Virus record (IMG/VR): IMGVR_UViG_3300010259_000001
Span: 1 to 64,000 of that record
Strand: one strand, 5' to 3'
DNA length: 64,000 nucleotides
Origin: a virus
Shown here: positions 4,073-30,070 of the stretch, in pieces
Layout: each line of letters starts with the position of its first letter
Numbering within the stretch: position 1 is the stretch's first letter
Notes under the pieces: generated by a model
Database searches by the model: none
The model's input: the letters and a program-made list of their open reading frames with translations, nothing else
What the model was told of the DNA's origin: nothing
Made by a program: the position numbers and the translations under genes

Positions 4073-4111
4073 GATGTTATTTTTTATATGATTTTACCTA
4101 ATTTTCTTCGG

Positions 4112-8812: not shown

Positions 8813-11800
8813 TTATCTATTGGGTTGCTGCATTGGGATATACTTCTGTGTGAAGCCCTGCATCACTGTACCAAGACTATTCATTGCGTCGGCGCGTGTA
8901 GAAGCATCGGGGGCTTCAAGCACTTTCACCATAGCCGATTTATAGTCAAGGACTGCCTGTCTGCACAATGCAGCTTCATCGGGTGTCTTGGCTCCAAGAT
9001 AGAACTTCACTATCTTATTGAAATTGCCATCCATCTGCTTGAACATCTGATAAGTTGCAAAGGCGTTGGGGTCGCTCTGTGCTTCTGCCATCAGTTGTGC
9101 TGCCTCCACATAATCGGTCTTCGCCATTTTCTTGGCTTCTTTCACCTTGGCATCAACACCCTTATACACTTCCTCGTATTGCAGGTAGGCTTCGTTCACT
9201 TTGTCATCGCCCATCTGCTCGGTGCGTTCTTTGATGGTCTTGTTTGCCTTGTCGGTAAACTTCTTGATGCGCTCCTCGTCACCCCATGACCAAGGAGAGA
9301 AGAAACGACCACGCTTCACCTTGAACTGGGCATAACGCTCTGCAAGTTGTGCAGGGGTGTACTTGCTCACTTCGTCACCGCTCAAACCAACCTCGTCGAA
9401 ATACATCTTGTCGATTTGGCTCTGCGGTACTTGCAAGATGCGAGAAATACAGATGATTGCCTCGTGTGCCAGTGTTGGGTCGTCACCACAAGCGTCCATG
9501 ATAGACAGGGCTACGTCGGTAATGCTCTGTGGGTTCACACCGAGACCTGCTTGAACAATGAGGTTAATCATGTCATTCAGTGCCTCTGTGTGCTGACCAT
9601 TGCCCAATTTTTGGAACGCTGCCATGATGTCGCTTGTCAGCGGCATGTCCTTACTCAGATAGGCAGGGTTACCCTCACCAGTAAGCATCATCTGTCCTGC
9701 TTGGCTCATAAGGTCGCCACCTGTCAGACCCTCGACACTGCCAAATGTGGTATGCGCCCAAACATCATCCCACATCTTCTGCTTCTCGTCTTCATCATCG
9801 CCGAACAGCAGGTATGGCAGATATGCACCCAAGTTCCATGCAAGCTGCATAATGTAGCCGAATGTGGCAACGCGCAGGGTATCTTTCAGCAACTGCCGTC
9901 TGAACTTGCGCTTGGCAACCTGCTCCTCACGTTGCCAATCAGCGTCTGACCAATTACCGTCTGTTTGTGGCTCAATACCCTTGTCACGCAACAGCTGCTT
10001 TGTCATAAACTCGATGCTTCCTGCTCGCCCTCCCGGTGTGAGATTGTGCTTGAAGTTACGGAGTGCATCATGCAACTGTCGCTGATAAGACATAGAGGCA
10101 TTGCGGAACACTGTGAACAACACGGACAACCAAGACCTATCAACCTGCATCGTCGAGGTAAATGCACCCTCGCTTGACTGCTGGGTCTGATTGTAAAGCA
10201 CCTCTGCATCCTGCACGGCTTTCTTCTCTGCGTCGGCTTCGCTGTAACCATCACGCAGGTATTGGGCAAGGCGTGTCTGATACATCGAATGTGCGCCGAT
10301 GCTGACAGTAAGAGCATCGACAAAAGCATTAGGAGACATACCTGCACGGCTTGCAAGTTGCATGAGGCGTGTGCGCCACATCTTCCAGTCCATATCTGAT
10401 TTCAACAGGCGTGGGTCGCCACTCATACGGCTACGCCAACGCTCGCTGAAGATTGGCAGATGCTCCATGCTCCACTTCCATGCTCCAGCAGGGTTGGCAA
10501 TGTTCCTCAACAAGTAGTCGGTTCTTGCTTCGGGTATGTATGCCGGCATGGAAAGGAACTGCTTTAAGGCTGTAAACATTCTGAACGACACCTTTGCTGC
10601 CGTTACACCCTTGGCGAAGTTCACTGCGGCTTCATCCAACTTGGTACGCGGCGGTCTGTAGGTTCCTGCTGCCATTTGGCAAACGTCGTTAAATTTCTTC
10701 CACAACTCTTTACCACTGCCGTAGATGGTAGTCATGTTCTGAACTTGGTTACGGAAACGCTTGTAGGTGCGCAGCGTGTTGATGTCGCGGTTAAACTCTG
10801 CAAAGGCGTTCCAGTGTTCCATCTGTGCCACATGGTCAAGTATCACGCTCAATGCGTCTGCACCTGTAATGTCAAGGGCAAGGGCATTGCGTCTGCGCTT
10901 GATAATGCTGCCAGTAGCGGTGCTGATGCCGTCACTCTTGTCGGGATTGTCAAGGTCTTCGGGCTTATCGGCACGGGCATTGGCAAGTATCTTCAATGGG
11001 AAGTAATGCTCAATAGCGGCCATGGAAGCACCGAACATTCGCTTGTGCGTCTCGTTGTACTCGTTGCGCGTCTGCACAAGGAACTCGTCTTGCAGCCAGT
11101 CGGCAAGTTCTATCAATCGTGGGTCAAGCACTTCTTCGATGTCTGCCACATTCTCCTCGGTGATACCCATCTTGCGCAACTTCATACGTCCGTCAAGCAT
11201 CTTGTTCACAATGTAGATATACATGAGGTTGCCTTGCGTCAGTTCGCGCTCCTGCATTTCACCACCGTTCCAAAACGACACTGTGCCTTTTGGCAGTTTG
11301 CCGACACTACGGATAAGGTCGCCCCACGTCTTCACCTTGCCACCGAACAACTCTGCTGCTTTGGCATCAAGGATGGCGTATTTGTCGCGCACACCGTTTA
11401 TTTCTTGCTGACGTGCATCAATCCAGCCTCTCATGAAGCGGTTATACAGGTAGCCCTCGCCGTTGGCACTCTTGCCTCCGAACATTCTCAACATCTGGTC
11501 AAAGGTGGCGAGAGGAGCAAACAGGAACGATACAAATGAGTTGTTGACGAACTTGTCAGCAAATGTCGGCTTATAATGTTCGTCGCTCGGTCTGCCCTCC
11601 ATGTCGCTGTTGGCATTGTGCTGTATCTCGCGGATGCGCTGTTTCTCGGCTTCCTTGAAGTCCTTGGCGTTGGCAATGCTCTCGCGGAGGCTGTCAGACA
11701 ACCTGCCTACAAGGTCGAAGTAACTCTGCGCTCTCTCAATCTTGTTCTGACGGATAGCCTCTTGCAGACTGGCAATGTACTGGCGGTAACTGTCGGTGGC

Positions 11801-14800
11801 ACGGTCGCGCTCGCTGGCATCGTCATGTGCCTGTTTGATTTCCTCACGCAGTTTGCGCTCCTCTACCTTGCTGTCCTTGATGTTCTCGGCATACTCCAGT
11901 GCAAGTTGCAGTCCTGTGTACTCCAATGCTGCTTCATCGGCTACTGCCACATCGCTGCTGCCCATACGCTGCTGTGCCTCGCTGATGGCTTCCTCGATGT
12001 CGGTCTTCTCCCATCCGCGTGTCTTCTTAAACACTTTCATGGTGTGCGCTCCGGCTGGGTCGAGTTGACCTTGCACCTCAACACCTCTTGCATCTACTTT
12101 GCTGCCTCTGATGGCTTCAAGTTCGTGCAGGGTGTCCTCGGCGTGCTTCAACTGATTGTCCACCATGATGTCCATCACCTTTTGCACATCACCCTCGATG
12201 TCATTGTGTCCTACGCTGTTCTTTACGGCTGCAAGCAAGCGTTTCACTTCCTGCTGAGTCAGTCCGTTCAGATAGCCGTTATTCATCAGCACACGCGCAA
12301 GGTCGGCGACACGTTTCACGGTGGTCATGTCAAAGGTACGCTGGAGGCTCATTGCCTTGCGCAAGTCGGAGAGGTTGCCACCGATGGCACGCATTGCATC
12401 ATTGCGCAACGTCTTGTTGTCACGATGATTGTTAGCCAGTCGGGTTGCTGCTGCCGTGATACGCTCCTGCAAACCTAAACTTTGGTCGTTCCAAATGTCT
12501 TCCGTCTCGTCCGGGTCACGGAACAAATCGGTACTTTCGTCGGCAATTTTGCTCTCATCAAGAATTTTTTTGCCACTATCGTATGACTTTTCAAGATTAT
12601 TTAGTAACTTTACACCGCTCACGAATACATCAGAAACGTTTGAGCGACCATTAGGAGTGTTGGATTGTTCATCCAGCACTTCTATTTTTGTAACCTCGTA
12701 GGTATAGTGCCCATTCGCTTTCTGTGGGTTCTCGTATTCTTTCATCGTGGTCTTTACACGATATATTTCATCACCTATCCTTACTGCGGCAGCGAAACGG
12801 TGCATTAGGATACCTTTATTAAATCCATTGTCCCACTTACGTTCACCATCTTTTTTCTTAATGTCGGGGTGTTCTTCAATCTCAATACTCTCATTGATAA
12901 CCTTATCCAACTTATCCATGACAGCCGCATGAACACCGATATTATCACTGTCACTTGCATGATTTGCAGCCTCTGTCAAAGACTTCGGACTAATTACATA
13001 GTCAAAAGTTGCTCCAAGGTTGTCATAATGCAATGATTTCAATTCACGTTTTTTCCCGTCACCAAACGAAGAGTATCTATCAATAGCGGCATCACGTGCT
13101 TGTGTTAGAACATCTCGACCTTGATATTGGTGACGAGGAACTTCAACGACTTTGAATTTCGCGCCATTAAGACCAGGCATAACCGTTCCTCTGTTTTCAA
13201 CGGCTCGTCTCTGACGCGCCTTGAAAGTCTCGGGAGCATCACCCATGTTGTAACGCGCCTCATCAGTCAACCCAAGTTCCTCACGCTTCACGATGTCACG
13301 CGCAAGGTCAATTGGGTGTTCCTTGCCACGCTCCAAACGCTCCTTGCTGCGCCACAAGATGTAACGCAGTTCGTTGTCGCCAAGTTCAAACCACTTTGGC
13401 AACTTCAACGATCCAAGGAACTTGTCAAGCAATCTGCGGACGGTGGCTTTGATTTTCTGCCATAAGGTACGCTCGCCCTCGCTGAACTCCTCAAACGGTT
13501 TCTCTGCCATGCGTCCAAACAACTCGTCAACAGCGGTGCGTCTGTGCTGCTCGTAACTCTTGGCACGCTTTCCGTTCTTGGTCGTATCGTCGATAAAGGC
13601 ACGACCTGCAGCATCATCAACGCCTTTTTTCAAGTCGTCGCGCAAATGCTGATAGGTCTCGTCAAGGAACTCGTCATAGTTTTCTTCACCGACAAGTTCA
13701 CGCAAACCCTTATGGGCAATAGTCTCATGCCCGACACTGGCTTTCACATCGTCAATGTTTTTGTTGTTGTCAAGAACGATGTTCACCTGTCCTGTGGCTG
13801 TGTCATACCAGCCTTTGGACTTGCGCCTACGCTCTTGCACCGCTGCATTGGGGTGTGTGATTTCGTTCACGTCCTCAATGATATTGATGTCCGTATGCAA
13901 CTTCTCACCCATCTGCTGAACGGCACTGCGCATCATGTCGCGGTCTTCCTGCATGGTACGCTTCACCTTGGCGTTAAGTGCTTCCACCTGTTTGTCAGTG
14001 ATGGCACCAGCCTGTCGCTGTTGAGGCTCACGACCTGCGGCTTCTACCATTGCATCAACCTCACTCGGTTTAAGAATGCGGTTTACTTTCATGGCACCAG
14101 TGATAACCCAAGGGTCTGTGTTCGGGTCGGGATTGGTGCGATACCTGTATGAGCCGTTTTCGGGCAGTCGTGGCAGACCTGCAAGCGAGTGTTGGAACTT
14201 TCCGCTTGCGTTCATGCCGTAACTCATGGCTTCCTCTTGGTAGTCCACATCGTTCGCATACTCCACCTCTGCCCACACAAAGTTTGCAGGGAACAACTCG
14301 CGCTGTCCTGTTTCGGGGTTCATGCGGTTGAACTGGAGTGCATAAGGTATCTCGCCCAAGTGCCAACCGGGACGGTATGCCAACTTGCCGCTACCTCCCT
14401 GTGTTCCCTTGCCACCTGCCTTAACCTGCTGGCGACCTGTCTTTGTAACACCTGCAACTGGGGCGGCATCTGCATCAAGCCATACACCCACTGGGGTAGC
14501 CTCACCGTTCGGGTTTGCTACCATAGGAGGATAAAGTTTGCCATCTTTCAACACAAACACCTTATAGCCGATACCTGTCTTTGTAGGTGGCTCGTCCTCG
14601 CGGATGCGGTACTTTGCGGTGTCCTCTGTTACATCGTCGCTGTCTTCGTCAGAAAGTTGTACGCCCTTTGCAGCTTCAACAGAAGCATCCATTTCGGCAT
14701 ACTTGGCTTCTTTCTCTGCCATTTCCGCTTTCATCAGTTCCTCATACTCGGCAAGTTTCTCTTTGGCTTGCTTCAACTCGTCGGCATACTCAAACGGTTT

Positions 14801-20800: not shown

Positions 20801-23800
20801 TTCTCGCTCACTTCTTGCAGACGGGAGTTTACTTTTGACTTCGCTTGCAATAGTTGCTGCTTCGCTTGCAAGAGCCTCTGTATTTGCTGCGACTTCTTGC
20901 TCTGTTTCTTTTCTTTGCTCATTGCGTTCTTGTTTTAGTTTGTCGGTTGCCTCCTTTGCCTCACGCTCGGCTGCTTGTTCGCGCACGATTTGTTCAGCGG
21001 TGGCAACAATATCCTTTGCACCCTCTTTGTCGAAGTTCATCACGTCAAAGCTGCGGACTTCATCCCAAGGGGTCATGTCTTTCTCTATGTCTGCCATTTC
21101 GGGCAGGTCGCGTGCGCCGTTGTAAAGTGTCTTGACGTATGGGCGTATGCCCTCACCGAGTGCTTCGATGAGGTTCTTGGCAAACTCTCCGAACTTGCGT
21201 GCGCCGTGCTTCAGCATGAGGTAACTCATTTCTACACCGATGGCAAACGCTTCGGGGTCAAGACCCATGTTCAACTGACCACCAAGTTTCATGCGCAAAC
21301 GCCTACGAAGTTCCTCAAAGCGTTCTGCATCTGCATCGTCAACCCACTTGCTCTTGGCTTTCTTCTCCTCCTGCTTGGGCTGCTCCTGTTCCGATGAAGC
21401 CGTATTTTGTTCCGAAACGTCCTCTTTTTGTTCTGATTGTGGCGTTTCCTGTTCCATTGGCATAGCGTCCTGCACCTCGTCGGCATTGGCTTTTGTGCCG
21501 TCGGTGAATGTATATTCCACCGTTCCGTCCTTATGGTGCGCCACAAAGATGTCCTTGTTGGCATTGTGCTTCACGGAGAAAACGCGGTCGCCACCGTGAT
21601 ACTCCTTGACAGGCTTCGGTAGTTCTACATTCTCCCAATCCGTAACCTCATACAGGACTGATGCCAAGCCAACATCAAGCGTTACTTGTCTTGCATCTGC
21701 ATCATGGATGGTTGCTTCCTTGCCTTTATACATAATCTTGTCACCCAATTTCACGCCATGAGCGGCAAGAGCATCGTCGCGCTCGGTCTCTGCCATCTTC
21801 TTGCGGATGTCGGAAAGGAACTGCTCGTAGGCACGCCGCTTGCCGTTGAGGTTGGCAAGTGCGTCAAAAGCCTGTGGAATGGTCTCACCTGCTGCGGTAG
21901 CCATGCCGTCCTCAATGGTCTTGGCACGCTTGCGCAGGTCGCGGATAACATTTTCAATACTCTTGATATTGGGGATTGCTCCACGCTTACGGTCATTGAG
22001 TACGTTGCGAAGTCCTGTCAGTGTCTTGTCATAGACATCATCCTCGCGGTCATAGTCATACTGTGGAGTGGTCTGTGGCTCTTGCTCTACCTTGATGGTT
22101 TCACTGGCGGCTTTCATATCTGCCTGGTCGGTGACTGTTGCCACGTCTTCTACAGACAAAGGCTGTGCATCCTGCATGGCTTCCTCATTGCTCAAAGCCT
22201 CTGCAAGTGCTTTCGCGCTGTCCTCGTCACGCATCATAAAACCGCTTTTCTCTCTATCCCACCAACCACGGCTTTCCTTTGCGAGTTCCTTGCCGGCACG
22301 AATTTCATCTTTCGACAACTCTCTGCCGAAAGTAACAAGGTGCATCGGTGTGGTCTTACCTTTCTTGTTGGTGTAGGTGGTCGGCTCGATGGAGTAACCT
22401 GCGGTCTGCTGCTCACCAAGTTGGGTGTCGCCAAGAGGCTTCACGCTGCTGTACTCCGCAAACGGCTTCGTCTTGCGGTGGCTGCTGTCAATCCACTTCT
22501 TGAACTCCTCTTTGCTGACAGGAGTAATGGCACCAAGTCCCTGCCAACCATCTTCATAGTTGGAGAGGTATGCCTTTCGTGCGCTCTCGATGTCGGGGAA
22601 ACCATACATCACCTTGTGTTCGTCAAAACTGCCGTCCTTGTTCACTTGGTCAACGACAAACACATCACCCTGCGAGGGGTCTTCGGAGAAGAACACGTCG
22701 ATGTGGTCGCCGTCAACGCCCTCTGTGCCGCGAATGTAGCCGTAGGTGTTCTGCATTTCCTGCTCCCACTGCTTGCCACTGGCATCAGTACCACGACGAA
22801 CAGAACCTTTCGGGTTCTCGATGGTAACGTCGTAGCCATCAATCTTGACATGTCCTTTCTTGTAGTTACCAGCCTCTTTCTGTGCTTCGGTAGGCTCGGT
22901 ATTGGTTTCCTGCTCGGCTGCTGCCAATGCTGTTTGCACGGCATTAGGCTCTGCTTCTACTGGTTCGGTAGCCTCAACAGGTTCTGCCTCTACTGGTGCA
23001 GGTTCGGCACTGGGTTCTGCTGTTGCTTCGCCATCTGTGCTGACTGCTGGAGGAGTGCCATCTTGTTGAACGCTCTCTGCTTTTCTGCGCTCCACGGCTT
23101 CTTCCCGGGCTGCTTCGATTTCTTTTCGTTTGCCATAATTCTCGTTGATAAATGTGATTACGTCTCGCAAGATGTCCTCGCGGCTCTGAATGCCACCTGC
23201 AAACAGGTCAGTCTGTCCAGATGCGCTTTGTCTCGCGTTGTTATTGTATAATTGGAGTGTGGTCTTCAGCAAGGTAACGCGCTTGTCATTCAGCACGTCA
23301 GCAAGCATCAGCATGGTTGCATTATTGAAGTCTGCTACGGTCTGCAACTCGTCGGGGTCAGCGAACAACACACCTTGACGTGCGTATGTGCTGACTATCT
23401 CGCCGTACTTGGCACCGCCTTGTCGTGCATCAAAGCACAACTTCACGGCATCTGCCAACTCTCCCTGCAAAGACCAGTCGCCACCAAGGGCAATGTTATC
23501 GACAATCTCACCAAGTGCGGTGATAACGGTCTGACGCATGGCTGGCTCTGCCGTGAGCATACGCACTACTTCGGGGTCGCTCTCAAAGGCTTTGCCGATG
23601 AGCATATTTTCCAAAAACTCACGACCGACGGCACTCAGTTTCTCCTGTCCGCGAATACCGTCAACCATTTCTGCCAACTGTGCCTGTGGAACAACACCGG
23701 CATTGTGCAGGTCATAGACTGCGCCAAGGCTCGCTTCTGCATCGTTGTAGAAGTCGCCCAGCGTGTCATAGCCGTTGATGGTTCTGACAATACCCTTGAA

Positions 23801-26800
23801 ACTATCGTCGCTCACGGTCTTGCCAAGTTTCACGGCTTGCTCGGTCTTGTTCTGCGACTTCATTTCCTGCTGGTTGAACTTCGCAAATGTCTCTGCCGTG
23901 TATGGCATTGCCTCATCGGGAACGAATGACACACGCGGATGCTGCATCGCTCCCACCTGTTCAGCAGTGAAGCCAAACTTGGGCGCGTACTCTTTCAGAT
24001 AGTTCACGTATGCGCCATCGGTATTGTCACGCGCTGCCAGTTCACCGGCCATGGTACGACCGTTGCCCGATAACACAACACCATCGTTGCTGACAACTGG
24101 AACACTCTGCAAGGCTCGCTGGTCATATTGACGCGCAATGCTCTGTGTATGCTCCTGCGCGTCGTGGTCTCGCTCATAGTCGCGGTCGTTCACGCTGTTG
24201 TCGTTGGCATCCATCGGGAAACCGTCAGTCTTCTGCCATGTTTCGGGATTGTGGCTTGGGGATGATGCACCACTCTCATGCAGGAGGTAATGACCTTTCA
24301 GCGGTGTTCCGTCGGGTAGCATGATTTCGTCGCGGTGTCCGTCAACCTTTGTGGCATTGTTCCACTTCTCGGTAATGGCTGGCATCGGGTTCTCGTTGCC
24401 AACTGCCTTACGCTCTGCCTCGGCTTGCTTGCGTGCCTCATATTCGGCTTGTGCCTCTGCAACGGCTTCATCATGACGCACGGCATCCTCTGCCGCTCTG
24501 CGCTCGTTCTCCTCACGCTGTATATCGTTCTGAATGTTGCGCACTTGCTGCCAGTAGTCCAATACGCGCTGCGCCTCGTCAATCTTCTCTTGACGTTTCG
24601 CCTTTGCCTCGTTGTACTTCTTGATGCTGGTACCAACTCTTGGCATCTGTGCCGACTTCGCCTTGACAAGTGCGCTCTGCGCTGCCTGTGTCTGCGCTGC
24701 AATAAATTCGTTACCCTCACTGCGTGATAGTCCTGCCTCGTTGAAAATGTAGGCATGGGCGCGTTCGGGTGTGGTGGCTTGCCAGTCTTCTTCACCATCC
24801 TCACCAACAGGCATAGGCTCTGCCGTTGGCTGCTCAGTTGGTTGTGCAGGTGCTTCGGCTGGTTGTGTCGGTTGAGGCTCTACCGTCTGCACTGGCTCCT
24901 GTACTTGCTGTGGTGCGACTTCGGCTTGCAGCTCAACAGGTGGGGGAGTAGTCTCTACCGTTGCAGGTGTTTCAGCGGAGGCTTCTTGTACTGGTGCTGC
25001 TTCGGGCTGCTGTGGTGCAACATGGCTCACAACTTTATCAACGAGTTTGTCTTCATGGTCGTGCTTTACCTCGCCGTCCATGAAATACTCGATGATGTTT
25101 CCGTTTGCGTCGGGAACAAAACTGCCGTTCTCATAGCGCACACGTCCCATCACCATTGCAGGTTTCTCGCTGCCGTCCTCGTCGCGGATAGTCAACTCCA
25201 TGTCGGCTGTATAGTCGGCTGGAGCACCTGCCACACGTCCGTCTGCCTGTGGCTGTGCTGGTGTTGAGGCTTTGGGCTGCTGTGCTGCTGGTTCTTCGGT
25301 GATACCATGACGCTGACGATAGTCTGCAGATGCTTTCTCGTCTCTGATGCGCTGTAACTCTGAACGCTGGACGGTTGCTTGTGTGCCGTCGCCAAGTGCT
25401 ACGGTGATGTTCTCACCGTCTGCATCGGTAGCGACAACAACGGCTTCCTCACCAGTAGGCAATACCAACTGCTGACCAGGTACAAAGCGAACAGTGCCTT
25501 GCGCCTCGTCAATCTGTGCTTGAACGTACTCCTGTCTGCTACGCTCGATGTCGGCTTCACGCTGTTCTGCGGTTGTCACCTCACCAAGAGAAGATATGCC
25601 GGTATCAGCGGACGGGTCTATCTGCTTGCGCTCACCAGTGGCAGGGTTATATACTACGACAATGTTGTCACTCGATGCCTTGTCAACCATTGAGCCGTCG
25701 GGCATCATCTGCACATTGCCGTCAACGATATACACTTGTTGGTCGTTACCCTCGCTGTCTTTCTCTTTGAGAATGGCAGGGCGCAAAGAGCCGTCAGTGT
25801 GCTGCATCTGCTTGGTCTGCTCTCGCTGCTGGGCTACCATGTAGGCTGCATCCTCGTTGATGCGCTGCACTACACCGTTCCATGCTTCCTGTGCTTCCGC
25901 ATTGTTTGGGTCGGCAAGTTCTATGGCGATGTCCTGACGCTCCTGCGCGTCGGCTTCGTGTCCTCTGTTGAAAGCTGCGCTAACAGGGTCGCCCTGCTCA
26001 CCATCGTCAATACCGAGTAATGCGGCTATCTGACTGTTACTTGTTGGTGCATCGGGGTCAACAGGTGCTTCGCCACGTTCTGCGGCTTCCTCCTGCTTGC
26101 GCTTCACGTCGGCAAACAGGCGGTTGGCATATTCGTCAACGGCTTTCTGCTCCTGCTCGCTTCGGCGGTTGCGCTCCTTGCGGATAGCCTTGTCAACATC
26201 AATACCAAATTCATCATTGATGGCTGCGCGTACTTCTGATGAACCGTATTTGTCGCCAAGACCGTTGTAGGCATTAAGGATTTTCTCTGCCCACTCTAAT
26301 TCAACTTCGTTCATTGCTTCGGTCTTGCGCTTCATGAGGTCGAACAAAAGGTTGGCAGGTGCGCCTGTTTCCTCTGCAACACTCTCGCAAGCCTCATACA
26401 TGCGCTTGTTGTCGCCTTGCCAGTCATAATAACGCTCACCCACGTCAAAGCCGTTCAACTCTGCTTGCCTGTTGATGCGGTTTGCTTCAACGTCTGCACG
26501 TTTCTTGTCACCAAACGAGCGACTGGTAATCACACCATTTGCACCAAAGGACTGCACGGTGTAACCTGTCACGTTGCCGTCTGCGTCCTTGTCTTCAAGG
26601 ATGCTTGAACCCATGACGGTTGACATTGGCAGACCATGCCCTGTGAGGTAGTAATACATCTTGGCACGCGCCGCCTCGCTGACGCTGTTGTCTGTCATCA
26701 ACTCGACAAAGCGGTTATATGGTAGTTCAGCCTGTCCGTCGCCTCCCTCAATCATTCTGCTTGCATCGGTGGTGGTAGGACGAGCCTTGTCATATTCTTC

Positions 26801-28903
26801 TTTGGCTTCGGCATAACGGCTGTATTCCTCCGTGAGGTCTTTCAAGTCGCCGTACCCTCTGCGTTCCAGTTCTTTCTTCTCGTCCTCAGTAAGTGCAAGG
26901 TCACCGCGTCCGTCAAGAATGGAACGTAAACGTGTCTCAAAACCAACCTTGCCGTTCTTGGAGCGTGCAAGGTCGTAGATAACACGCGGTGCAGACTTCA
27001 ACAGATGTTGTGCCTTGAAACCTGCAATCATTGCCATGTTATCAGTCCAAACGTCCATCAGCGCGTCACCACGACTATTGCGAAGTTCCTCAATCTTGGC
27101 TGCACGTTCCTGTTCGTCTGCAATATAGTTGGGGCTGGTCTCATCAGACAGTGAGTTGATGAGGTCGCCATATTGTCCGTAGGTGTTGATTATCTCCGGC
27201 ACGGCAAATATTGTTCCCTCTGCCACTGTACCTACACCAAGTTCACCGGCACGGATGCCCATCTTGCCAACGGTGCTTTCGGTGGCTCTGACAAGTTTGT
27301 CGCTTACATTGCCGAGGTATGGAGCAATTACACCAGTTACTGCACCCATCATCAAGCCGTGTCCTGCACGCCCTGCCACATTGCCAAACGAGAAACCGTC
27401 CTTGCGTTCACCTGTTTCCTCGTCAATGTAACCTCCCCACTTCATTTGGTCGAGAGCTTCGCTTCCTGCCTCGTATGTGCCGAAGTTCACAGCACCACCA
27501 ATGGCTCCACCAAGCATACGACCTCCGAGCGTGGTGCCAAACTTACGCATGGCTGCTTCGCCAATCATCTTGCCACCGAGCCAAGTTGTGCCTTTAACGG
27601 CTGTACCACCTGTACCTGCAGATGCCCAAGTGAGAGGGTCTAAGGCAAAGCCTGTAACAGTTCCTGCAATACCTGCGACTTTATGTCCTTGCTTCTCAAA
27701 GCGTTGTTCTGCATCTTCGCGTGCTTCCCAGTCGCCTGTTGTTCCTGCTTGCGCTCTTGCCGCTGCTTGCATCAATGTTCCCATTGCGTTACCTGCGGCA
27801 ACCTTGCGGATGAAGTATTCTGCTGCATCTTTAGGGGCGTTCTTGGCTACTGCAAGTTCATACATACGGCGGTCGCTCTGTTCACGCGCCATTTCCGTTG
27901 CTGCTTGTTGCAACTGCTGTTCTGTGGCTTGTGGGTAACGGTTCTTCAGTGCGCCGTACATATCTTCGATGATGGACTGCTGTTTCTCCTTGCCAAGCAT
28001 GTTCCAAGCATCATCAGCCATACGTTGCAGGTCGTGGTATTTCAGATGAGTGGCAAATGCCTTGATGCCGGTGTCAACATTATCAGCACCCAAACCTCCT
28101 GTTACGCTCGTACCCTCCGCAGCACCACGGAGGAAATTGCTCCATGATGGTTTGCTACGCTCGTCCAAGTATCTACCAAACTCCTCATTAGATTTGTCCT
28201 CGGCTTGCTGCCATACCATTGCAGCAGCATTGTCGGGGTCGTACTTGTCGATTGATGCACCCACACGACGCTCAAAGTCGTTCTGTATGCGCTTCTCGCG
28301 GTGTCTGCGTCCCTCCTCGGTTGTGGCTTCCCACTCGTCACGGTATTTCAGATTGAGGCGCGACTGCTCCAGCGGTGTTGCAACCTCATCGCCATGCGTC
28401 GTGTAATACCTGCGCTCCATCTTTCCGCTTTCCGGGTTGAACTTCACTTCGCTGGTCTTGCCCAAAGTGTTGCCCTTGCGGATATTCTCCATGCGAGTAT
28501 TGAAGTCCTGCTGCGACTGCTTAACTTGGCGCATAGTCTCGTCCAACTGCATCTGCATACCCATCTTCTCCTGCCAAGTAGGTTGCCATCCACCTTGCTT
28601 TTGTGGCTGTTCATCCTGTTTGGGCTGTGTCGATGTGTTCACGGTCGGGTTTACTTGCCCTGTAGTCTGCTTGACTACCGGCTGTGCTGGTGCCGGTGCC
28701 GGCTTCTGCACTGGCTGAACCATCATACTTGCGAAATCGTCAGCACTACCAACATTCAAGCCTAAACTACGGCTCTTTTGGTAGTACCAATCGCGGTCTT
28801 CTTTATTGTCAAGGCTCTTTGTGAAGTCGTCGTAACTGCCAGTGTTTACGCCATTCTTCTTCATTTGCTCATAGAGCCACTTTCTATCGTCGTCATTCCA
28901 CAT
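8813..28903 (-). CDS. Giant polyvalent multi-domain protein (6,696 aa), probably a virion-packaged, injected anti-defence protein
   Basis: Single uninterrupted ORF with an ATG start, 7 nt after the upstream stop and directly upstream of the portal. Recognisable modules are listed as separate features. They are separated by long acidic or Pro-rich linkers and coiled-coil regions. Confidence 0.85.
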   Translation of the reverse strand: MWNDDDRKWLYEQMKKNGVNTGSYDDFTKSLDNKEDRDWYYQKSRSLGLNVGSADDFASMMVQPVQKPAPAPAQPVVKQTTGQVNPTVNTSTQPKQDEQPQKQGGWQPTWQEKMGMQMQLDETMRQVKQSQQDFNTRMENIRKGNTLGKTSEVKFNPESGKMERRYYTTHGDEVATPLEQSRLNLKYRDEWEATTEEGRRHREKRIQNDFERRVGASIDKYDPDNAAAMVWQQAEDKSNEEFGRYLDERSKPSWSNFLRGAAEGTSVTGGLGADNVDTGIKAFATHLKYHDLQRMADDAWNMLGKEKQQSIIEDMYGALKNRYPQATEQQLQQAATEMAREQSDRRMYELAVAKNAPKDAAEYFIRKVAAGNAMGTLMQAAARAQAGTTGDWEAREDAEQRFEKQGHKVAGIAGTVTGFALDPLTWASAGTGGTAVKGTTWLGGKMIGEAAMRKFGTTLGGRMLGGAIGGAVNFGTYEAGSEALDQMKWGGYIDEETGERKDGFSFGNVAGRAGHGLMMGAVTGVIAPYLGNVSDKLVRATESTVGKMGIRAGELGVGTVAEGTIFAVPEIINTYGQYGDLINSLSDETSPNYIADEQERAAKIEELRNSRGDALMDVWTDNMAMIAGFKAQHLLKSAPRVIYDLARSKNGKVGFETRLRSILDGRGDLALTEDEKKELERRGYGDLKDLTEEYSRYAEAKEEYDKARPTTTDASRMIEGGDGQAELPYNRFVELMTDNSVSEAARAKMYYYLTGHGLPMSTVMGSSILEDKDADGNVTGYTVQSFGANGVITSRSFGDKKRADVEANRINRQAELNGFDVGERYYDWQGDNKRMYEACESVAEETGAPANLLFDLMKRKTEAMNEVELEWAEKILNAYNGLGDKYGSSEVRAAINDEFGIDVDKAIRKERNRRSEQEQKAVDEYANRLFADVKRKQEEAAERGEAPVDPDAPTSNSQIAALLGIDDGEQGDPVSAAFNRGHEADAQERQDIAIELADPNNAEAQEAWNGVVQRINEDAAYMVAQQREQTKQMQHTDGSLRPAILKEKDSEGNDQQVYIVDGNVQMMPDGSMVDKASSDNIVVVYNPATGERKQIDPSADTGISSLGEVTTAEQREADIERSRQEYVQAQIDEAQGTVRFVPGQQLVLPTGEEAVVVATDADGENITVALGDGTQATVQRSELQRIRDEKASADYRQRHGITEEPAAQQPKASTPAQPQADGRVAGAPADYTADMELTIRDEDGSEKPAMVMGRVRYENGSFVPDANGNIIEYFMDGEVKHDHEDKLVDKVVSHVAPQQPEAAPVQEASAETPATVETTPPPVELQAEVAPQQVQEPVQTVEPQPTQPAEAPAQPTEQPTAEPMPVGEDGEEDWQATTPERAHAYIFNEAGLSRSEGNEFIAAQTQAAQSALVKAKSAQMPRVGTSIKKYNEAKAKRQEKIDEAQRVLDYWQQVRNIQNDIQREENERRAAEDAVRHDEAVAEAQAEYEARKQAEAERKAVGNENPMPAITEKWNNATKVDGHRDEIMLPDGTPLKGHYLLHESGASSPSHNPETWQKTDGFPMDANDNSVNDRDYERDHDAQEHTQSIARQYDQRALQSVPVVSNDGVVLSGNGRTMAGELAARDNTDGAYVNYLKEYAPKFGFTAEQVGAMQHPRVSFVPDEAMPYTAETFAKFNQQEMKSQNKTEQAVKLGKTVSDDSFKGIVRTINGYDTLGDFYNDAEASLGAVYDLHNAGVVPQAQLAEMVDGIRGQEKLSAVGREFLENMLIGKAFESDPEVVRMLTAEPAMRQTVITALGEIVDNIALGGDWSLQGELADAVKLCFDARQGGAKYGEIVSTYARQGVLFADPDELQTVADFNNATMLMLADVLNDKRVTLLKTTLQLYNNNARQSASGQTDLFAGGIQSREDILRDVITFINENYGKRKEIEAAREEAVERRKAESVQQDGTPPAVSTDGEATAEPSAEPAPVEAEPVEATEPVEAEPNAVQTALAAAEQETNTEPTEAQKEAGNYKKGHVKIDGYDVTIENPKGSVRRGTDASGKQWEQEMQNTYGYIRGTEGVDGDHIDVFFSEDPSQGDVFVVDQVNKDGSFDEHKVMYGFPDIESARKAYLSNYEDGWQGLGAITPVSKEEFKKWIDSSHRKTKPFAEYSSVKPLGDTQLGEQQTAGYSIEPTTYTNKKGKTTPMHLVTFGRELSKDEIRAGKELAKESRGWWDREKSGFMMRDEDSAKALAEALSNEEAMQDAQPLSVEDVATVTDQADMKAASETIKVEQEPQTTPQYDYDREDDVYDKTLTGLRNVLNDRKRGAIPNIKSIENVIRDLRKRAKTIEDGMATAAGETIPQAFDALANLNGKRRAYEQFLSDIRKKMAETERDDALAAHGVKLGDKIMYKGKEATIHDADARQVTLDVGLASVLYEVTDWENVELPKPVKEYHGGDRVFSVKHNANKDIFVAHHKDGTVEYTFTDGTKANADEVQDAMPMEQETPQSEQKEDVSEQNTASSEQEQPKQEEKKAKSKWVDDADAERFEELRRRLRMKLGGQLNMGLDPEAFAIGVEMSYLMLKHGARKFGEFAKNLIEALGEGIRPYVKTLYNGARDLPEMADIEKDMTPWDEVRSFDVMNFDKEGAKDIVATAEQIVREQAAEREAKEATDKLKQERNEQRKETEQEVAANTEALASEAATIASEVKSKLPSARSEREVNDLAKNIDDAIDKVNDQLALLGYYEAEPVESDFNEAYGYMRNAEKKAVKNVTELFKTLTKELGISDPVVYDTKGKKQKSVTANIAPAGGDVTMRFMLNRDKGVELYIDFMLEPDYENNRDNLVLKGIMFRPERNLPNGGRDYLRANNFFPVDVTMPQMLQGIRSVCQEWLPAEDYVAMAQRIAAENAGNQQEKPSKERKSKKKSESLQEQTIPDLFSGLFSEDLKPTSNEQEVHVQPRTSTTERERGHQREQNEPLGESKQNEDERPDAGGVVRRSGNDTKSDTAGGSRVSEPSDGKQNVKPAKPEPAPLAESERKNTHNNHAERGTDYAPKGTSARIEANIKAIETMQRLIESGEPATPEDMSVLRKFSGWGGLGAAFKEKVSSGDSGYNPRLRDDYQPSNPINARLRELLSPEAYEAANMSRNSAYYTPAPVIDAMWDVARAMGFRGGNVLEGSAGIGSIIGLMPTDMSERSNIHAVEIDETTGNILSLLYPDANVEVKGFEKTFVPNGSVDLAITNVPFVTGLRVMDETGDKDLSRKFHDIHDFCIAKNVRKLKEGGVGIFITSSGTLDSPNSAKLRTWLVNEGGADVVGAFRMHNQTFGGTGATSDIIVIRKRVNGRKSANAIDVSGTLPIRTVKYNTGETKRGSSEVIVKDLALDVNKHFVEHPEDMAGEMAFAFEKGDTYRATSKALYPSPSINQEQRLSEWAQQFKDMDWDKAEERESQQVVYEDLGEDVKEGSMLLDSDGNLCLAQRGKAVPINVNANKVKGHTKAECFNAYKAIKDALADVLEYQTTHSDDSGLQQRLAKLNKAYDSFVKTYGHLNKNTSISFLRSDMDYPSIAALESVSETGDKSGKRIVTYGKTDIFSRRVVETESEPKPTTIKDGIIASIYLNGRVDVPYIAEQLNMSDSDVRQQIIESGLGFENPTTTEMEVSYEYLSGNVREKLRQAQENNTDGRYDANIKALERVIPMNIPAHLIEFTLGSSWVEPKLYEDFVKERTGLDVKLTNAGGTWIMSEPYYTNTEQNKAMGVISEKCDKTILGHELIKAAITCKSISVTKTISTGYGSSKTTETIVDKEATMACANKIDEIRQDFKDWARGKMQGDPEMSERMERVYNELFNNSVPKEIPDDFVPEHFGGAATVVNGKPFKLRPHQAKAVIRATTQPLMLAHEVGTGKTYTLISTAMEMRRLGTARKPMIVVQNATVGQFVASAKALYPNAKILTLEDADRNAEGRRNFYAKIRYNDWDMIVVPQSVFERIPDSEERQIRFVEDKVEEKMMVLEKMREAANDDRDPVLRQAQRELDQLNDELNDLKLALQERKSGGNTEKDEKREAKTRQNAMVKAQEMLDRETDDVANFDDMGIDALLIDEAHEYKHLGFATAMQRGVKGVDPSYSKKSQGVYLKTQAVLENKNGKNVVFATGTPISNTAAEIWTFMRYLMPADTMREYGIYYFDDFVRNFGNIQQMLEFSTNGKYKENNRFAGYVNLPELVRIWAGVADTVLTREAGGVSDKIPKMDGEKAQDIYLPQTKALRGVMKFVKDQLDDYEKMSGKEKKENSHIPLVMYGIAKAAAVDARLVLEDAADEPNSKTNEAVRQTLRSLEDTKEYNGTVAIFADNYQNKATGFNLYEDIRKKLIDAGVPEAQVVVMKSGMSIKKKLEIFDKVNRGEVRVIMGSTFTLGTGVNIQERLHTLIHVDAPNRPMDYTQRNGRILRQGNLHNEWGIPVRVLRFGVEDSLDVTAYQRLKTKGAIADSIMEGKKMMSNSMENRVLEEEQDLFGDITAQLSGSQYALLKNQVEKEVKKLEARKKQWEADQTYVHNQKPRLKALIKDSEERAKRNKEALARVEAAKNDGITIGKMKFPSLDAMTDYLKDYNSKQREQQEQVRTASGYKSEAKSDLTVSVGGFDFHIHRVISKEQKQEKGQLSLSFFSKTQMTYSCPELGLEDVPVDGQRLKSALEDILENVLSGDDFREKAEYADRAAERYKGELQQVEARDGKPFEYADELKQAKEKLAEYEELMKAEMAEKEAKYAEMDASVEAAKGVQLSDEDSDDVTEDTAKYRIREDEPPTKTGIGYKVFVLKDGKLYPPMVANPNGEATPVGVWLDADAAPVAGVTKTGRQQVKAGGKGTQGGSGKLAYRPGWHLGEIPYALQFNRMNPETGQRELFPANFVWAEVEYANDVDYQEEAMSYGMNASGKFQHSLAGLPRLPENGSYRYRTNPDPNTDPWVITGAMKVNRILKPSEVDAMVEAAGREPQQRQAGAITDKQVEALNAKVKRTMQEDRDMMRSAVQQMGEKLHTDINIIEDVNEITHPNAAVQERRRKSKGWYDTATGQVNIVLDNNKNIDDVKASVGHETIAHKGLRELVGEENYDEFLDETYQHLRDDLKKGVDDAAGRAFIDDTTKNGKRAKSYEQHRRTAVDELFGRMAEKPFEEFSEGERTLWQKIKATVRRLLDKFLGSLKLPKWFELGDNELRYILWRSKERLERGKEHPIDLARDIVKREELGLTDEARYNMGDAPETFKARQRRAVENRGTVMPGLNGAKFKVVEVPRHQYQGRDVLTQARDAAIDRYSSFGDGKKRELKSLHYDNLGATFDYVISPKSLTEAANHASDSDNIGVHAAVMDKLDKVINESIEIEEHPDIKKKDGERKWDNGFNKGILMHRFAAAVRIGDEIYRVKTTMKEYENPQKANGHYTYEVTKIEVLDEQSNTPNGRSNVSDVFVSGVKLLNNLEKSYDSGKKILDESKIADESTDLFRDPDETEDIWNDQSLGLQERITAAATRLANNHRDNKTLRNDAMRAIGGNLSDLRKAMSLQRTFDMTTVKRVADLARVLMNNGYLNGLTQQEVKRLLAAVKNSVGHNDIEGDVQKVMDIMVDNQLKHAEDTLHELEAIRGSKVDARGVEVQGQLDPAGAHTMKVFKKTRGWEKTDIEEAISEAQQRMGSSDVAVADEAALEYTGLQLALEYAENIKDSKVEERKLREEIKQAHDDASERDRATDSYRQYIASLQEAIRQNKIERAQSYFDLVGRLSDSLRESIANAKDFKEAEKQRIREIQHNANSDMEGRPSDEHYKPTFADKFVNNSFVSFLFAPLATFDQMLRMFGGKSANGEGYLYNRFMRGWIDARQQEINGVRDKYAILDAKAAELFGGKVKTWGDLIRSVGKLPKGTVSFWNGGEMQERELTQGNLMYIYIVNKMLDGRMKLRKMGITEENVADIEEVLDPRLIELADWLQDEFLVQTRNEYNETHKRMFGASMAAIEHYFPLKILANARADKPEDLDNPDKSDGISTATGSIIKRRRNALALDITGADALSVILDHVAQMEHWNAFAEFNRDINTLRTYKRFRNQVQNMTTIYGSGKELWKKFNDVCQMAAGTYRPPRTKLDEAAVNFAKGVTAAKVSFRMFTALKQFLSMPAYIPEARTDYLLRNIANPAGAWKWSMEHLPIFSERWRSRMSGDPRLLKSDMDWKMWRTRLMQLASRAGMSPNAFVDALTVSIGAHSMYQTRLAQYLRDGYSEADAEKKAVQDAEVLYNQTQQSSEGAFTSTMQVDRSWLSVLFTVFRNASMSYQRQLHDALRNFKHNLTPGGRAGSIEFMTKQLLRDKGIEPQTDGNWSDADWQREEQVAKRKFRRQLLKDTLRVATFGYIMQLAWNLGAYLPYLLFGDDEDEKQKMWDDVWAHTTFGSVEGLTGGDLMSQAGQMMLTGEGNPAYLSKDMPLTSDIMAAFQKLGNGQHTEALNDMINLIVQAGLGVNPQSITDVALSIMDACGDDPTLAHEAIICISRILQVPQSQIDKMYFDEVGLSGDEVSKYTPAQLAERYAQFKVKRGRFFSPWSWGDEERIKKFTDKANKTIKERTEQMGDDKVNEAYLQYEEVYKGVDAKVKEAKKMAKTDYVEAAQLMAEAQSDPNAFATYQMFKQMDGNFNKIVKFYLGAKTPDEAALCRQAVLDYKSAMVKVLEAPDASTRADAMNSLGTVMQGFTQKYIPMQQPNR
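13600..13900 (-). other. Domain of the giant protein: HExxH zincin-like metallopeptidase motif
   Basis: ...VKASVGHETIAHKGLRELVGEENYDEF...; the HETIAH codons are at 13712-13729. Confidence 0.5.
15560..17400 (-). other. Domain of the giant protein: SNF2/DEAD-like helicase
   Basis: Motif I AHEVGTGKTY (17255-17284), motif II LLIDEAHEYK (about 16676-16693), and C-terminal helicase motifs ...GTGVNIQERLHTLIHVDAPNRPMDYTQRNGRILRQGN (about 15600-15780). Confidence 0.85.
19080..19790 (-). other. Domain of the giant protein: N6-adenine DNA methyltransferase (gamma-class, DarB-like)
   Basis: Motifs seen: FSGWGGLG, AYYTPAPVIDAMW, SAM motif I VLEGSAGIGSIIG (about 19400-19450), and catalytic motif IV DLAITNVPF (19222-19251). 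Confidence 0.8.
22490..22880 (-). other. Domain of the giant protein: family-I inorganic-pyrophosphatase-like fold
   Basis: ...VTIENPKGSVRRG...NTYGYIRGTEGVDGDHIDVFF...VVDQVNKDGSFDEHKVMYGF... aligns by eye with E. coli Ppa (VVIEIPAN..., [20 protein letters not shown]..., [14 protein letters not shown]). The acidic metal ligands appear to be kept. Confidence 0.55.
23950..24250 (-). other. Domain of the giant protein: possible ParB/Srx-like (DdrB-ParB-type) domain
   Basis: Motif ...VPVVSNDGVVLSGNGRTMAGELAARD... (about 24040-24075) resembles the ParB/sulfiredoxin GxxR loop seen in polyvalent proteins. Weak, by eye only. Confidence 0.3.
27165..27690 (-). other. Domain of the giant protein: Gly/Ala-rich hydrophobic (glycine-zipper-like) region
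   Basis: Sequence reads ...VAGIAGTVTGFALDPLTWASAGTGGTAVKG...LGGRMLGGAIGGAVNFG...GHGLMMGAVTGVIAPYLG...GVGTVAEGTIFAVPEI... Confidence 0.5.
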
Positions 28904-28909: not shown

Positions 28910-30070
28910 TTATCTTCTGCTTGGTGGTGTATTATTGTTATTGTTTCTTCTGCTTGGAGGTGTGTTGTCTTCGGAAGTGGTTACGCCACCGATGGCACGC
29001 AAAGCACTCTGCACGTTCGGGTCGTCGATGTTTGAACCAATCCAGTCCATCATTTGGTCGGCTGAAACAGGCGTTGTCTGTCCTGTTGAGACATTGTAAC
29101 CTCCAGTCGGGCGACCTGCGGACGGTGTTTTGCTGAACACATACGAGATATTGTGCTGGTTCAGTCGGGTGTTAGGAATGCGAACCATGCCATTGCCCGA
29201 ATAGAACTCAGTATATTTACCGTCCTGCGATGCAGCAAAACGCTGACGTTCCAAGCCCTCTGATGACTTATTGTGCCGTCTCGTTTCGGCAATACCAGCA
29301 GCTTGAAGTCTCTCAGATGCCCGATTGTGACGTTCATGCTCCTTGGAGGTGACATCAAACTGACGCTGGTTCTCATCGAAACCTTTCTGCCAGTGCTCGT
29401 TGTCGGTGTCAAACTTCTTGTCGCGGAAAGCCACATCGTCGGCACGGTCTTTGCGACCTGCGTCAAACTGCTGCTGCCAGTTGCTCTGCTGCTGTTCTGC
29501 TTGTGTGACACGGAAATTGAAGTCGCGGTCTTTGTCCTTGATGTTGCCGAGGGTGATGGCGTAATTCACCAGCCTGTCATTGTCCTTGTCGCGCTGTGCC
29601 TTGGCTTTCTCAAACAGTTCTTTGGCTTTTGCCGACATTTTAGGCATATCCATAGCCTTGATGCCACGCGCATGAGAAAACGCCGTGTGGAATGTTCCCA
29701 AACCCTCAGCGAGCCTTGCGAGGAAGCCTACACGTTTTTCGCGCTTCTCTCGTTTCTCTCGCTCCTCTTTTGTCTCGGGCTTGATTGCATCCATCTGACC
29801 ACGCAAGAACTCCTCCAGTTCTGCGTAATTGTTACCCTTGAACTGTGCGTATGGGCTTGTTACCGTCGTGGTAGTGGTTGTTGATGAAGATGAAGAACCG
29901 TTGTTGTCATTCAGTGTAGGAGTGGCAAGCGATGGAGGGGCAGGTGTGCCGTTTCCTCCATCGTCCTGTGTAGGGGTCGCTCCGGGCTGTTGCCCATCAT
30001 CATTCTGTGAGAAATCGTAGAATGACGTTGCACCTCGCGGTATTGTCGTTCCAAATGGGTTTGTTGCCAT
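28910..30070 (-). CDS. Hypothetical low-complexity, charged protein
   Basis: 386 aa with an ATG start. Contains an S/T homopolymer tract (GSSSSSTTTTTTV) and a charged central region. The C-terminus has a duplicated TPPSRR, seen as an nt direct repeat at about 28913-28965. Confidence 0.5.
   Translation of the reverse strand: MATNPFGTTIPRGATSFYDFSQNDDGQQPGATPTQDDGGNGTPAPPSLATPTLNDNNGSSSSSTTTTTTVTSPYAQFKGNNYAELEEFLRGQMDAIKPETKEEREKREKREKRVGFLARLAEGLGTFHTAFSHARGIKAMDMPKMSAKAKELFEKAKAQRDKDNDRLVNYAITLGNIKDKDRDFNFRVTQAEQQQSNWQQQFDAGRKDRADDVAFRDKKFDTDNEHWQKGFDENQRQFDVTSKEHERHNRASERLQAAGIAETRRHNKSSEGLERQRFAASQDGKYTEFYSGNGMVRIPNTRLNQHNISYVFSKTPSAGRPTGGYNVSTGQTTPVSADQMMDWIGSNIDDPNVQSALRAIGGVTTSEDNTPPSRRNNNNNTPPSRR

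Follow-up and report, generated by a model that had tools for sequence, protein, structure and literature searches.

The IMG/VR virus record IMGVR_UViG_3300010259_000001 has been analysed over its positions 1 to 64,000 (hereafter the window), a stretch that covers ~97% of the ~65.9 kb genome, circular or permuted, of a gut Bacteroidales phage. The subject of the present work is a giant open reading frame (ORF) on its minus strand, which spans 20,091 nt, i.e. 31.4% of the window and ~30% of the ~66 kb genome, and which is set among genes for virion assembly as listed below; integrase, capsid and replication genes are found in the same genome as the giant, the portal and the large terminase subunit.

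4667..6769, minus strand: large terminase subunit (phrog_2, E 2.9e-16, and other terminase families)
6782..8755, minus strand: P22-like portal protein, directly downstream of the giant gene (phrog_156, E 2e-94; PF16510 P22_portal on record)
8813..28903, minus strand: giant ORF, 6,696 amino acids, 749 kDa, isoelectric point 5.2, ATG start
28910..30070, minus strand: gene for a 386-amino-acid protein, middle member of a three-gene cassette, upstream of the giant in relatives too
30092..30592, minus strand: gene for a 166-amino-acid Gly-zipper protein, first member of the cassette (PF24072 T7_gp14)

The giant ORF is one real gene. As stated in an initial annotation made from the sequence by eye, it consists of a single uninterrupted frame: its translation contains no internal stops, the remaining five frames across the same stretch contain 65-436 of them and, with the base composition of the window, a stop-free run of 6,696 codons would arise by chance with a probability of ~1e-143. 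The Logan contig SRR5190360_1310 (65,946 bp) provides an identical 6,696-amino-acid gene call along with an identical portal. Loci of relatives were found by scanning IMG/VR with the methylase segment of the protein (n=27), and most of them exhibit a single uninterrupted frame of 5,600 to >7,315 amino acids around the methylase match; the products of three (L011, L012 and L015, on contigs from different metagenomes) are collinear with the giant protein over its full length and 93-96% identical to it, and that of a further one (L014) is 60% identical. The question of an assembly chimera, raised in the initial annotation, is thereby settled. When the ORF is compared with these three close relatives, the ratio of non-synonymous to synonymous divergence (pN/pS) is 0.00-0.46 in each 400-codon interval and lowest (0.00-0.10) in the methylase-helicase block; purifying selection is thus seen in all intervals, which implies that the unassigned regions of the protein are also translated and constrained. 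A megablast search with the ORF against 50,697 phage records gave no matches.

The possibility that the ORF is an artefact, due either to chimeric assembly or to adjacent genes fused by chance, would find some ground in the facts that public contigs often break within the giant gene, that database gene calls are frequently fragments and that a split form is known from one related lineage. It is already effectively refuted, and retains practically no probability, in the light of the identical call in the independent Logan assembly, the collinearity of the three metagenomic contigs, at least 20 relatives with open frames >5,500 amino acids and the selection acting along the entire ORF.

Two stretches of the giant ORF (residues 2401-2800 and 5201-5600, nt ~20504-21703 and ~12104-13303) display a pS of 0.25-0.5, as compared with ~0.05-0.15 elsewhere, between phages that are otherwise 93-96% identical. 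This higher divergence suggests recombinational replacement of internal modules.

Domain composition of the giant protein

The order of the domains results from Pfam and PHROG scans, motif searches and alignments of homologues; Pfam was also run on ten overlapping segments of 950 residues, at E<=1. From the N- to the C-terminus, the parts are as follows.

28718..28903, minus strand: N-terminal leader, residues 1-62, with two tandem copies of W-x-Y-(6-8 residues)-G-x-N-x-G-S-x-D-D-F
26054..28903, minus strand: N-terminal module (N-module), residues ~1-950, conserved in homologues, matching no family
27179..27706, minus strand: Gly-rich or glycine-zipper region, residues ~400-575, with GxxxGxxxG at residues 461, 503 and 516
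24743..25039, minus strand: P/E/A/Q/T linker 1, residues 1289-1387, at least 70% P/E/A/Q/T in 40-residue windows
23942..24130, minus strand: DdrB-like ParB domain, residues 1592-1654 (PF18763, E 7e-9, above gathering score)
22853..23083, minus strand: P/E/A-rich linker 2, residues 1941-2017, from composition
22490..22888, minus strand: InPase (type I inorganic pyrophosphatase-like) domain, residues 2006-2138 (PF18823, E 2e-59 to 7e-60)
18938..19798, minus strand: predicted N6-adenine DNA methyltransferase, residues ~3036-3322 (phrog_11801, E 9.6e-55; phrog_10089)
15644..17347, minus strand: predicted SNF2/SF2 helicase, residues ~3853-4420 (ResIII, SNF2-rel_dom and Helicase_C matches)
14009..14578, minus strand: phrog_30118 domain with no function assigned, residues 4776-4965 (E 1e-33; low-confidence model)
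13214..13936, minus strand: HExxxH metallopeptidase-like domain, residues ~4990-5230 (H5059, E5060, H5064, distal Glu 5127)
12722..12988, minus strand: large polyvalent protein-associated domain 3 (LPD3), residues 5306-5394 (PF18798, E 3.6e-8, above gathering score)
8816..12556, minus strand: all-alpha C-terminal module (C-module), residues ~5450-6696, conserved over ~1,240 residues, matching no family

Several modules that had been recognized by eye are thus recovered by family models. The ParB-like segment corresponds to ddrB-ParB and includes a GNGRT motif at residue 1613; the pyrophosphatase-like domain scores above the Pfam gathering score; the adenine methylase is identified through PHROG DNA-methyltransferase families and through its motifs I (LEGSAGIG, residue 3155) and IV (NVPF, residue 3221); and the SNF2 helicase, besides its three Pfam matches, has the motifs GTGKT (residue 3878), DEAH (residue 4074) and QRNGRILRQG (residue 4411). 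The Pro/Glu/Ala/Gln-rich linkers are also borne out by composition (residues 1289-1387 and 1941-2017). Two other features of the initial annotation are retained in part. The Gly-zipper region does contain GxxxGxxxG repeats, and G516, G520 and G524 are almost invariant among 22 homologues, but the hydrophobic character attributed to it is not apparent, no 19-residue window reaching a Kyte-Doolittle value of 1.3; similarly, the ~1,300 helical residues at the C-terminus do form a conserved all-alpha module of ~1,240 residues, but strongly hydrophobic segments were not found there. Over the whole protein, that threshold is reached by no 19-residue window outside the helicase, and transmembrane segments were rejected as candidates, the sole marginal window falling inside the helicase itself.

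Outside the listed domains, the Pfam scan of the ten segments returned nothing, with no methylase, MuF or peptidase model among the matches; in particular, no Pfam methylase model matched the methylase domain, neither MuF (Phage_Mu_F) nor MuF_C is present in the giant protein at E<=1, and ArdC-N and lysozyme domains were not found by Pfam. MuF_C does occur in some relatives, just upstream of the common HExxxH block. NCBIfam gave just a far sub-threshold match to the DISARM DrmD helicase and a chance match to IS4. Residues ~2140-3030 have few relatives and no family assigned, and phrog_10089, the family annotated as ‘DarB-like antirestriction’, matches residues 1958-5157 only (821 + 1,408 bits). 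A PDB sequence search with both halves of the protein led to a single match, between the InPase domain and a portal: residues 636-763 of 9b41 chain L (‘gp19 Portal’, 765 amino acids) are homologous to residues 2018-2149 of the giant (E 1.7e-31), the InPase domain being the C-terminus of this solved portal protein. There is, then, direct structural evidence for a domain of this type within a virion component.

The methylase motif IV NVPF, the DEAH box, helicase motif VI and HExxxH-x-GLR are kept in 20 out of 20 giant relatives examined, as is methylase motif I, and the exact Walker A string GTGKT is found in 17 of the same 20. Such conservation, together with the pN/pS minimum over the methylase-helicase block and the E 2e-59 of the InPase family match, argues against the idea that the giant is mainly structural, i.e. 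an internal-core, ejectosome or tail scaffold whose enzyme-like domains are decayed relics. This idea, which is regarded as very improbable, would account for the lack of any enzymatic assignment over about half of the chain (N- and C-modules, linkers and unassigned stretches), and for the conserved ends being more widespread than any cargo domain.

The HExxH site of the initial annotation had to be relocated. The only literal HExxH (residue 4077) belongs to the DEAH box of the helicase (DEAHEYKH), while the conserved site is HETIAH, i.e. HExxxH, at residues 5059-5064; across 16 diverse homologues (alignment A2), H5059, E5060, H5064, a G-L-R string and a Glu further downstream do not vary. In their survey of polyvalent proteins, Iyer, Burroughs, Anand, de Souza & Aravind (2017, J Bacteriol; PMC5512222) described some of the zincin-like metallopeptidases as having an HEXXXH motif. 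In these, a three-stranded sheet precedes two C-terminal helices, the first of which bears the motif, and a Glu is located on a later helix. In the AlphaFold2 model of residues 4775-5460, the predicted local distance difference test (pLDDT) score is 66 overall and best (~75-88) over the HExxxH domain, where a long helix is followed by three strands, the HE-bearing helix and further helices with the conserved Glu; the second His sits just past the end of the HE helix. When BFVD was searched with this model, fragments of further viral polyvalent proteins were matched by fold, at E values as low as 6e-15. The A2 profile gave chance-level matches only in PDB and Pfam, and when its 16 members were scanned with the Pfam models (E up to 1), one matched DUF6782, a putative metallopeptidase, at E 0.01, and no other metallopeptidase model was hit. 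The Foldseek matches of the model of residues 4775-5460 to PDB were weak and NTF2-like (E>0.06), and are not relied on. Because the HEXXXH motif has been described for polyvalent zincins and the predicted topology fits the zincin core, the domain is read as a putative HEXXXH-type polyvalent metallopeptidase.

Conserved ends, exchangeable cargo and the three-gene cassette

The architecture of the giants is that of conserved ends flanking swapped cargo. At E<=1e-3, the N-terminal 1,000 residues retrieve representatives of 241 clusters built at 50% identity, all of them at the protein N-terminus; among the best 150 of these 241, 59 have at least 4,000 amino acids, 34 exceed 5,007, 17 have at least 6,000 and five have at least 6,696. 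The 62-residue leader is kept at residue 1 of many giants that diverge straight after it (e.g. P0276, P0277 and P0290), and it may represent an assembly or targeting signal. At the opposite end, the C-module recurs in >60 metagenome proteins, with 54-98% identity and many invariant residues, including the string YFPLKILANAR, and it is encoded directly upstream of a P22-type portal gene in all four contexts inspected. The N-terminal parts of these C-module proteins contain RadC, PBECR1, ART-PolyVal, PBECR5, Kinase-PolyVal and MuF_C domains, and ten N-module proteins display differing mixes of InPase, ddrB-ParB, ART-PolyVal, MuF_C, RadC, PBECR1/3/5 and LPD1/3/5/13/38. Proteins consisting of the C-module alone were considered and rejected, since the gene calls behind the database entries of ~1,200 amino acids are truncated, beginning where a contig ends.

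Neither end module matched Pfam, PHROG or PDB; for the N-module, the Pfam search was made with 22 members (alignment A5). The AlphaFold2 model of the C-module, obtained with 20 sequences, is all helical, with a pLDDT of 60 and a predicted template modelling (pTM) score of 0.40, and nothing was retrieved with it by Foldseek from PDB at E<=1e-3. The C-module, the N-module and the leader appear not to have been described before.

A split form of the giant is found in one related lineage sampled three times (L007, L008 and L009), where two genes of 4,881 and 1,658 amino acids overlap by ATGA. The junction (L007 10001-10004) lies just after the helicase block, at the equivalent of residue ~4767 and before the phrog_30118 domain; therefore, the boundary at ~4,770 is a natural joint.

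That this boundary is functionally tolerated is one of the observations in keeping with the giant being a polyprotein precursor, cut at its linkers by the HExxxH peptidase or by a head protease into separate proteins, namely methylase-helicase, InPase, ParB and the structural ends, that are packaged or active as such. The invariance of the HExxxH domain in all relatives examined and the long P/E/A/Q linkers point the same way, as do the proposal of autoprocessing by Iyer et al. (PMC5512222) and the processing of P1 DdrB before packaging. The same survey (PMC5512222) also lists the N4 virion RNA polymerase and the plasmid proteins ArdC and TraC1, which have such peptidase domains and yet are transferred unprocessed; furthermore, no cleavage sites can be predicted in the giant, and the peptidase assignment consists of a motif and a predicted topology only. 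Processing of this kind, which is considered possible but rather less than probable, is a variant of the explanation preferred below, namely that of a packaged polyvalent protein, and is compatible with it.

The initial annotation placed the giant in a virion neighbourhood, between a small virion-operon gene and the portal gene. The portal gene is indeed directly downstream; the gene immediately upstream is that of the 386-amino-acid protein, and the small gene, for the 166-amino-acid protein, comes only after it. The latter protein has Gly-zipper ends and matches PF24072 along almost all of its sequence, with E 5.6e-4; this family is also matched nearly full-length by seven of nine homologues, with a best E of 1.6e-9, so that on profile similarity the 166-amino-acid protein is assigned to the T7 gp14 internal-virion-protein family. 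Its profile has no match in PDB. For the 386-amino-acid protein, 376 clusters of homologues were found, and Pfam domains are absent from all of them. The order small-medium-giant is kept in the cultured phages BKO1-TP3, BS-TP4 and BF1-TP2 and in IMG/VR loci; in BF1-TP2 the homologous cassette is not beside the portal gene. The link of giant genes to a gp14-family cassette also appears to be undescribed.

The cassette is reminiscent of T7 gp14-gp15-gp16: in both phages, the portal is of the podovirus type, and the virion module includes three consecutive genes that rise in size. The third product is in both cases large and equipped with enzymatic domains, a transglycosylase in T7 gp16, and the conserved ends of the giant are mostly helical. 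However, the giant is five times the size of T7 gp16 and has no transglycosylase domain, and neither the 386-amino-acid protein nor the N- and C-modules have a Pfam match to gp15 or gp16. The likeness is best regarded as an analogy of organization rather than demonstrated family membership. Comparisons of the C-module by hhalign with T7 gp16 (probability 0.1%) and with the C-terminus of the BKO1-TP3 giant (non-significant) were insensitive, because the templates were single sequences.

Relatives and proposed function

The closest cultured phages are the temperate Bacteroides phages BKO1-TP3, BS-TP4 and BF1-TP2. Their portals share 48-69% identity with that of the window, and their giants comprise 5,553, 5,391 and 3,633 amino acids, respectively; BKO1-TP3 grows on B. 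koreensis HM3 and BS-TP4 on B. salyersiae BG8. BKO1-TP3 (gp55, deposited as ‘DarB-like antirestriction’) and BS-TP4 (gp3; GenBank PQ571269 / PQ571277) belong to the same phage group, with portals 67-69% identical, and, like the phage of the window, have an integrase and the succession of small gene, medium gene, giant and portal. Blocks of the window giant matching BKO1-TP3 gp55 are found at residues 3-178, 883-1715, 1987-2671, 2839-4765 (61% identical) and 4947-5194, and residues 5200-6696 have no match in it; indeed, the C-terminal ~1,500 residues, including the C-module, are without counterpart in either the BKO1-TP3 or the BS-TP4 giant, the window giant being 1,100-1,300 residues longer than these two. 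BS-TP4 gp3, in turn, lacks the methylase-helicase block.

P1 DarB is a 2,255-amino-acid, capsid-packaged methylase-helicase antirestriction protein. The window giant has the same order of a methylase followed by a helicase, and P1 darB is retrieved by tblastn (E 5e-15, 27% identity) in two pieces spanning both domains, although only 23% of the 1,801-residue core query aligns. By its predicted N6-adenine methylase followed by an SF2 helicase, homologous to those of P1 DarB, the giant can be called DarB-like. It differs in being three times as long, in fusing into the same chain a DdrB-type ParB, i.e. another component of the P1 dar system, and in coming from a phage with a Bacteroidales host, a P22-type portal and an SU10-type capsid. 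Thus, of the comparison with P1 Dar, LPD and MuF proteins proposed in the initial annotation, the DarB homology, the DdrB-ParB domain and LPD3 are upheld, and a MuF domain is absent.

Its membership in the polyvalent proteins, also proposed there, is supported by the ddrB-ParB, InPase and LPD3 domains (PF18763, PF18823 and PF18798, all of which were defined on such proteins) along with the DarB-like core. The adenine methylase plus SF2 helicase and, if it is read correctly, the HEXXXH-type domain are features shared with polyvalent proteins too, and at least two distinct conflict-related domains, the usual mark of the class, are present in the one chain; likewise, the phage that encodes the giant packages its DNA by means of a portal and a terminase. 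The size of the giant is far above that of typical polyvalent proteins, and ~2,200 of its residues (N- and C-modules and leader) have no match in the Pfam families tested, polyvalent-derived ones included. The set of domains is diagnostic of the phage type; according to Iyer et al. (PMC5512222), InPase and DdrB-ParB occur in phage-type polyvalent proteins only.

More distant giants are those of Bcep22 (gp75), BcepIL02, JC1, Ralstonia phages, Erwinia PEp14, Pavtok, Klebsiella SopranoGao and LASTA, the core being 27-30% identical over 83-93% of the query; for Bcep22, JC1 and Pavtok, E is ~1e-150 to 1e-173 over 83-87% of its 1,801 residues. In the Bcep22-like phages, as here, one gene in the virion module accounts for 20-30% of a ~60 kb genome, but the N- and C-terminal thirds of the proteins are unrelated to those of the window giant, in which a lysozyme domain is also missing. 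JC1 gp69 (4,515 amino acids, 22% of the JC1 genome) has been detected by mass spectrometry in CsCl-purified virions (PMC9144972). Erwinia phage Pavtok gp27 (5,007 amino acids) was presented in a 2021 paper as the longest known phage protein, and its authors argued that ejection requires proteins of this kind to be unfolded, at least in part; the window giant, with 6,696 amino acids, is longer. Membership of the ‘PLxRFG’ giant proteins, to which those of SopranoGao and LASTA belong, was rejected: a search for the motif PL.RFG in the window giant gave no matches, nor was there an NCBIfam match, and the methylase-helicase core alone is in common. Literature searches on PLxRFG and on giant proteins in gut phage surveys led to nothing specific.

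On these grounds, the giant is probably a phage-type polyvalent protein, most likely stored in the capsid near the portal and ejected with the DNA or ahead of it; its packaging and injection are suggested by analogy with the homologues and by the gene context. The 749-kDa chain would be stored inside the capsid, near the portal, and ejected into a Bacteroidales host, where the cargo (DarB-type methylase plus SNF2 translocase, ParB and InPase-like domains) would work in cis on the incoming genome, or would target the defence signalling of the host, so as to blunt restriction-type immunity before phage gene expression. The flexible P/E/A/Q linkers would suit a beads-on-a-string chain, of which at least a part has to be unfolded during passage through the tail channel, and the HExxxH zincin-like domain may cut this chain into working pieces. 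Leader, N-module and C-module most likely serve for incorporation into the procapsid, docking to the portal or core and passage of the envelope, and the giant, as the third and ‘large’ member of its cassette, would correspond in position to gp16 in the T7 series gp14-gp15-gp16. The anti-restriction activity, the cleavage of the chain and the functions of the two end modules are thus predictions drawn from sequence.

Several observations weigh against this proposal. Two stand-alone methylases are also encoded in the phage, so that the methylase of the giant is not obviously needed for self-protection. P1 DarB requires the partners DarA, Hdf and DdrA, none of which was identified in the phage of the window, where no search for homologues of them was made. 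The N- and C-modules are without detectable similarity to T7 gp15, gp16 or any solved structure, confidence is low for both structure models (pLDDT 60 and 66; pTM 0.40), no peptidase was matched by the HExxxH domain in Pfam or PDB or, significantly, by Foldseek in PDB, and a convincing transmembrane helix is absent from the giant protein on the Kyte-Doolittle scale. In addition, the PF24072 match of the window's own 166-amino-acid protein is below the Pfam gathering score, and hhalign of the gp14-like profile with T7 gp14 itself gave nothing, in a comparison that was again insensitive because of its single-sequence template. Finally, the giant genes are not discussed in the paper describing BKO1-TP3 and BS-TP4.

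A rival reading is that the giant is not packaged at all, being made after infection or in the lysogen as a cytoplasmic DNA-modification or anti-defence factor, its adjacency to the portal gene reflecting operon organization. The presence of further cytoplasmic methylases and a helicase in the phage, and the position of the BF1-TP2 cassette away from the portal gene, would agree with such a role, and packaging of the window giant itself is deduced indirectly. Nonetheless, this is judged unlikely: homologous giants are virion-associated by mass spectrometry, the gene is on the same strand as, and between, the gp14-family gene and the portal and terminase genes, the InPase and DdrB-ParB domains are typical of phage-type, presumably packaged polyvalent proteins, and a methylase that is only produced late could not be in time to shield the incoming DNA.

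If the giant is a packaged polyvalent protein, it could further be conceived as an ejectosome and its payload in a single chain, with leader, N-module and C-module constituting a hitherto unrecognized portal-docking and envelope-crossing apparatus, on which podovirus-like phages of Bacteroidales would mount interchangeable anti-defence cargo. This bolder extension is advanced tentatively and is somewhat doubtful. Were it true, the conserved ends would be a modular injection chassis threading a 750-kDa chain through the tail with the help of the gp14-like and 386-amino-acid proteins, and the family (at least 34 50%-identity clusters >5,007 amino acids, some >7,300) would comprise the largest phage-injected proteins known.

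The concepts of polyvalent and of DarB-like giant virion proteins are already published, and a related protein has been deposited as ‘DarB-like antirestriction’; the window giant therefore extends a known kind and adds nothing conceptually new. The size class, 6,696 amino acids here and >7,300 in relatives, appears not to have been described. The gene illustrates the reach of the polyvalent strategy, with a 749-kDa chain taking up 30% of the genome of a temperate gut phage, and the family is abundant and largely undescribed in human-gut Bacteroidales phages, many of its members exceeding 5,007 amino acids. Conserved ends and variable cargo next to a gp14-family gene offer a concrete model for the capsid loading and injection of very large proteins, and the cultured Bacteroides relatives BKO1-TP3 and BS-TP4 make virion proteomics and genetics feasible. 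Such giants are likely determinants of host range with respect to the restriction systems and further defences encountered in the gut microbiome, and their ends might serve as a chassis to deliver engineered proteins.

Other features of the phage genome

Besides RecT/exonuclease genes and a replication initiator with a DnaC-like loader, the phage features a complete diversity-generating retroelement and further DNA-modifying enzymes, as follows.

38770-40194, 44668-46413 and 46382-47383, plus strand: separate SNF2-like helicase and two stand-alone DNA methyltransferases
55920-57847, with 57703-64000 and 1-198, minus strand: diversity-generating retroelement
55920-57263, minus strand: reverse transcriptase ORF of the retroelement, 51% identical to the BS-TP4 reverse transcriptase
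57414-57528: template repeat of the retroelement
57733-57847: variable repeat of the retroelement, at the 3' end of a 2,803-amino-acid gene
57703-64000 and 1-198, minus strand: the 2,803-amino-acid gene (Logan gene call), phrog_14959, with C-terminal similarity to tail proteins, wrapping around the window ends
4237-4716, plus strand: small gene between the terminase gene and the subsequent virion genes on the opposite strand

Through the separate helicase and the methyltransferases, the methylase and helicase functions are duplicated outside the giant. All 14 mismatches between the template and variable repeats fall on template adenines. The 2,803- and 6,696-amino-acid genes together make up ~43% of the genome. 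As to the small gene at 4237-4716, its likely counterparts, found at the equivalent place in relatives (including L005/L001), have a rhomboid-family annotation or match.

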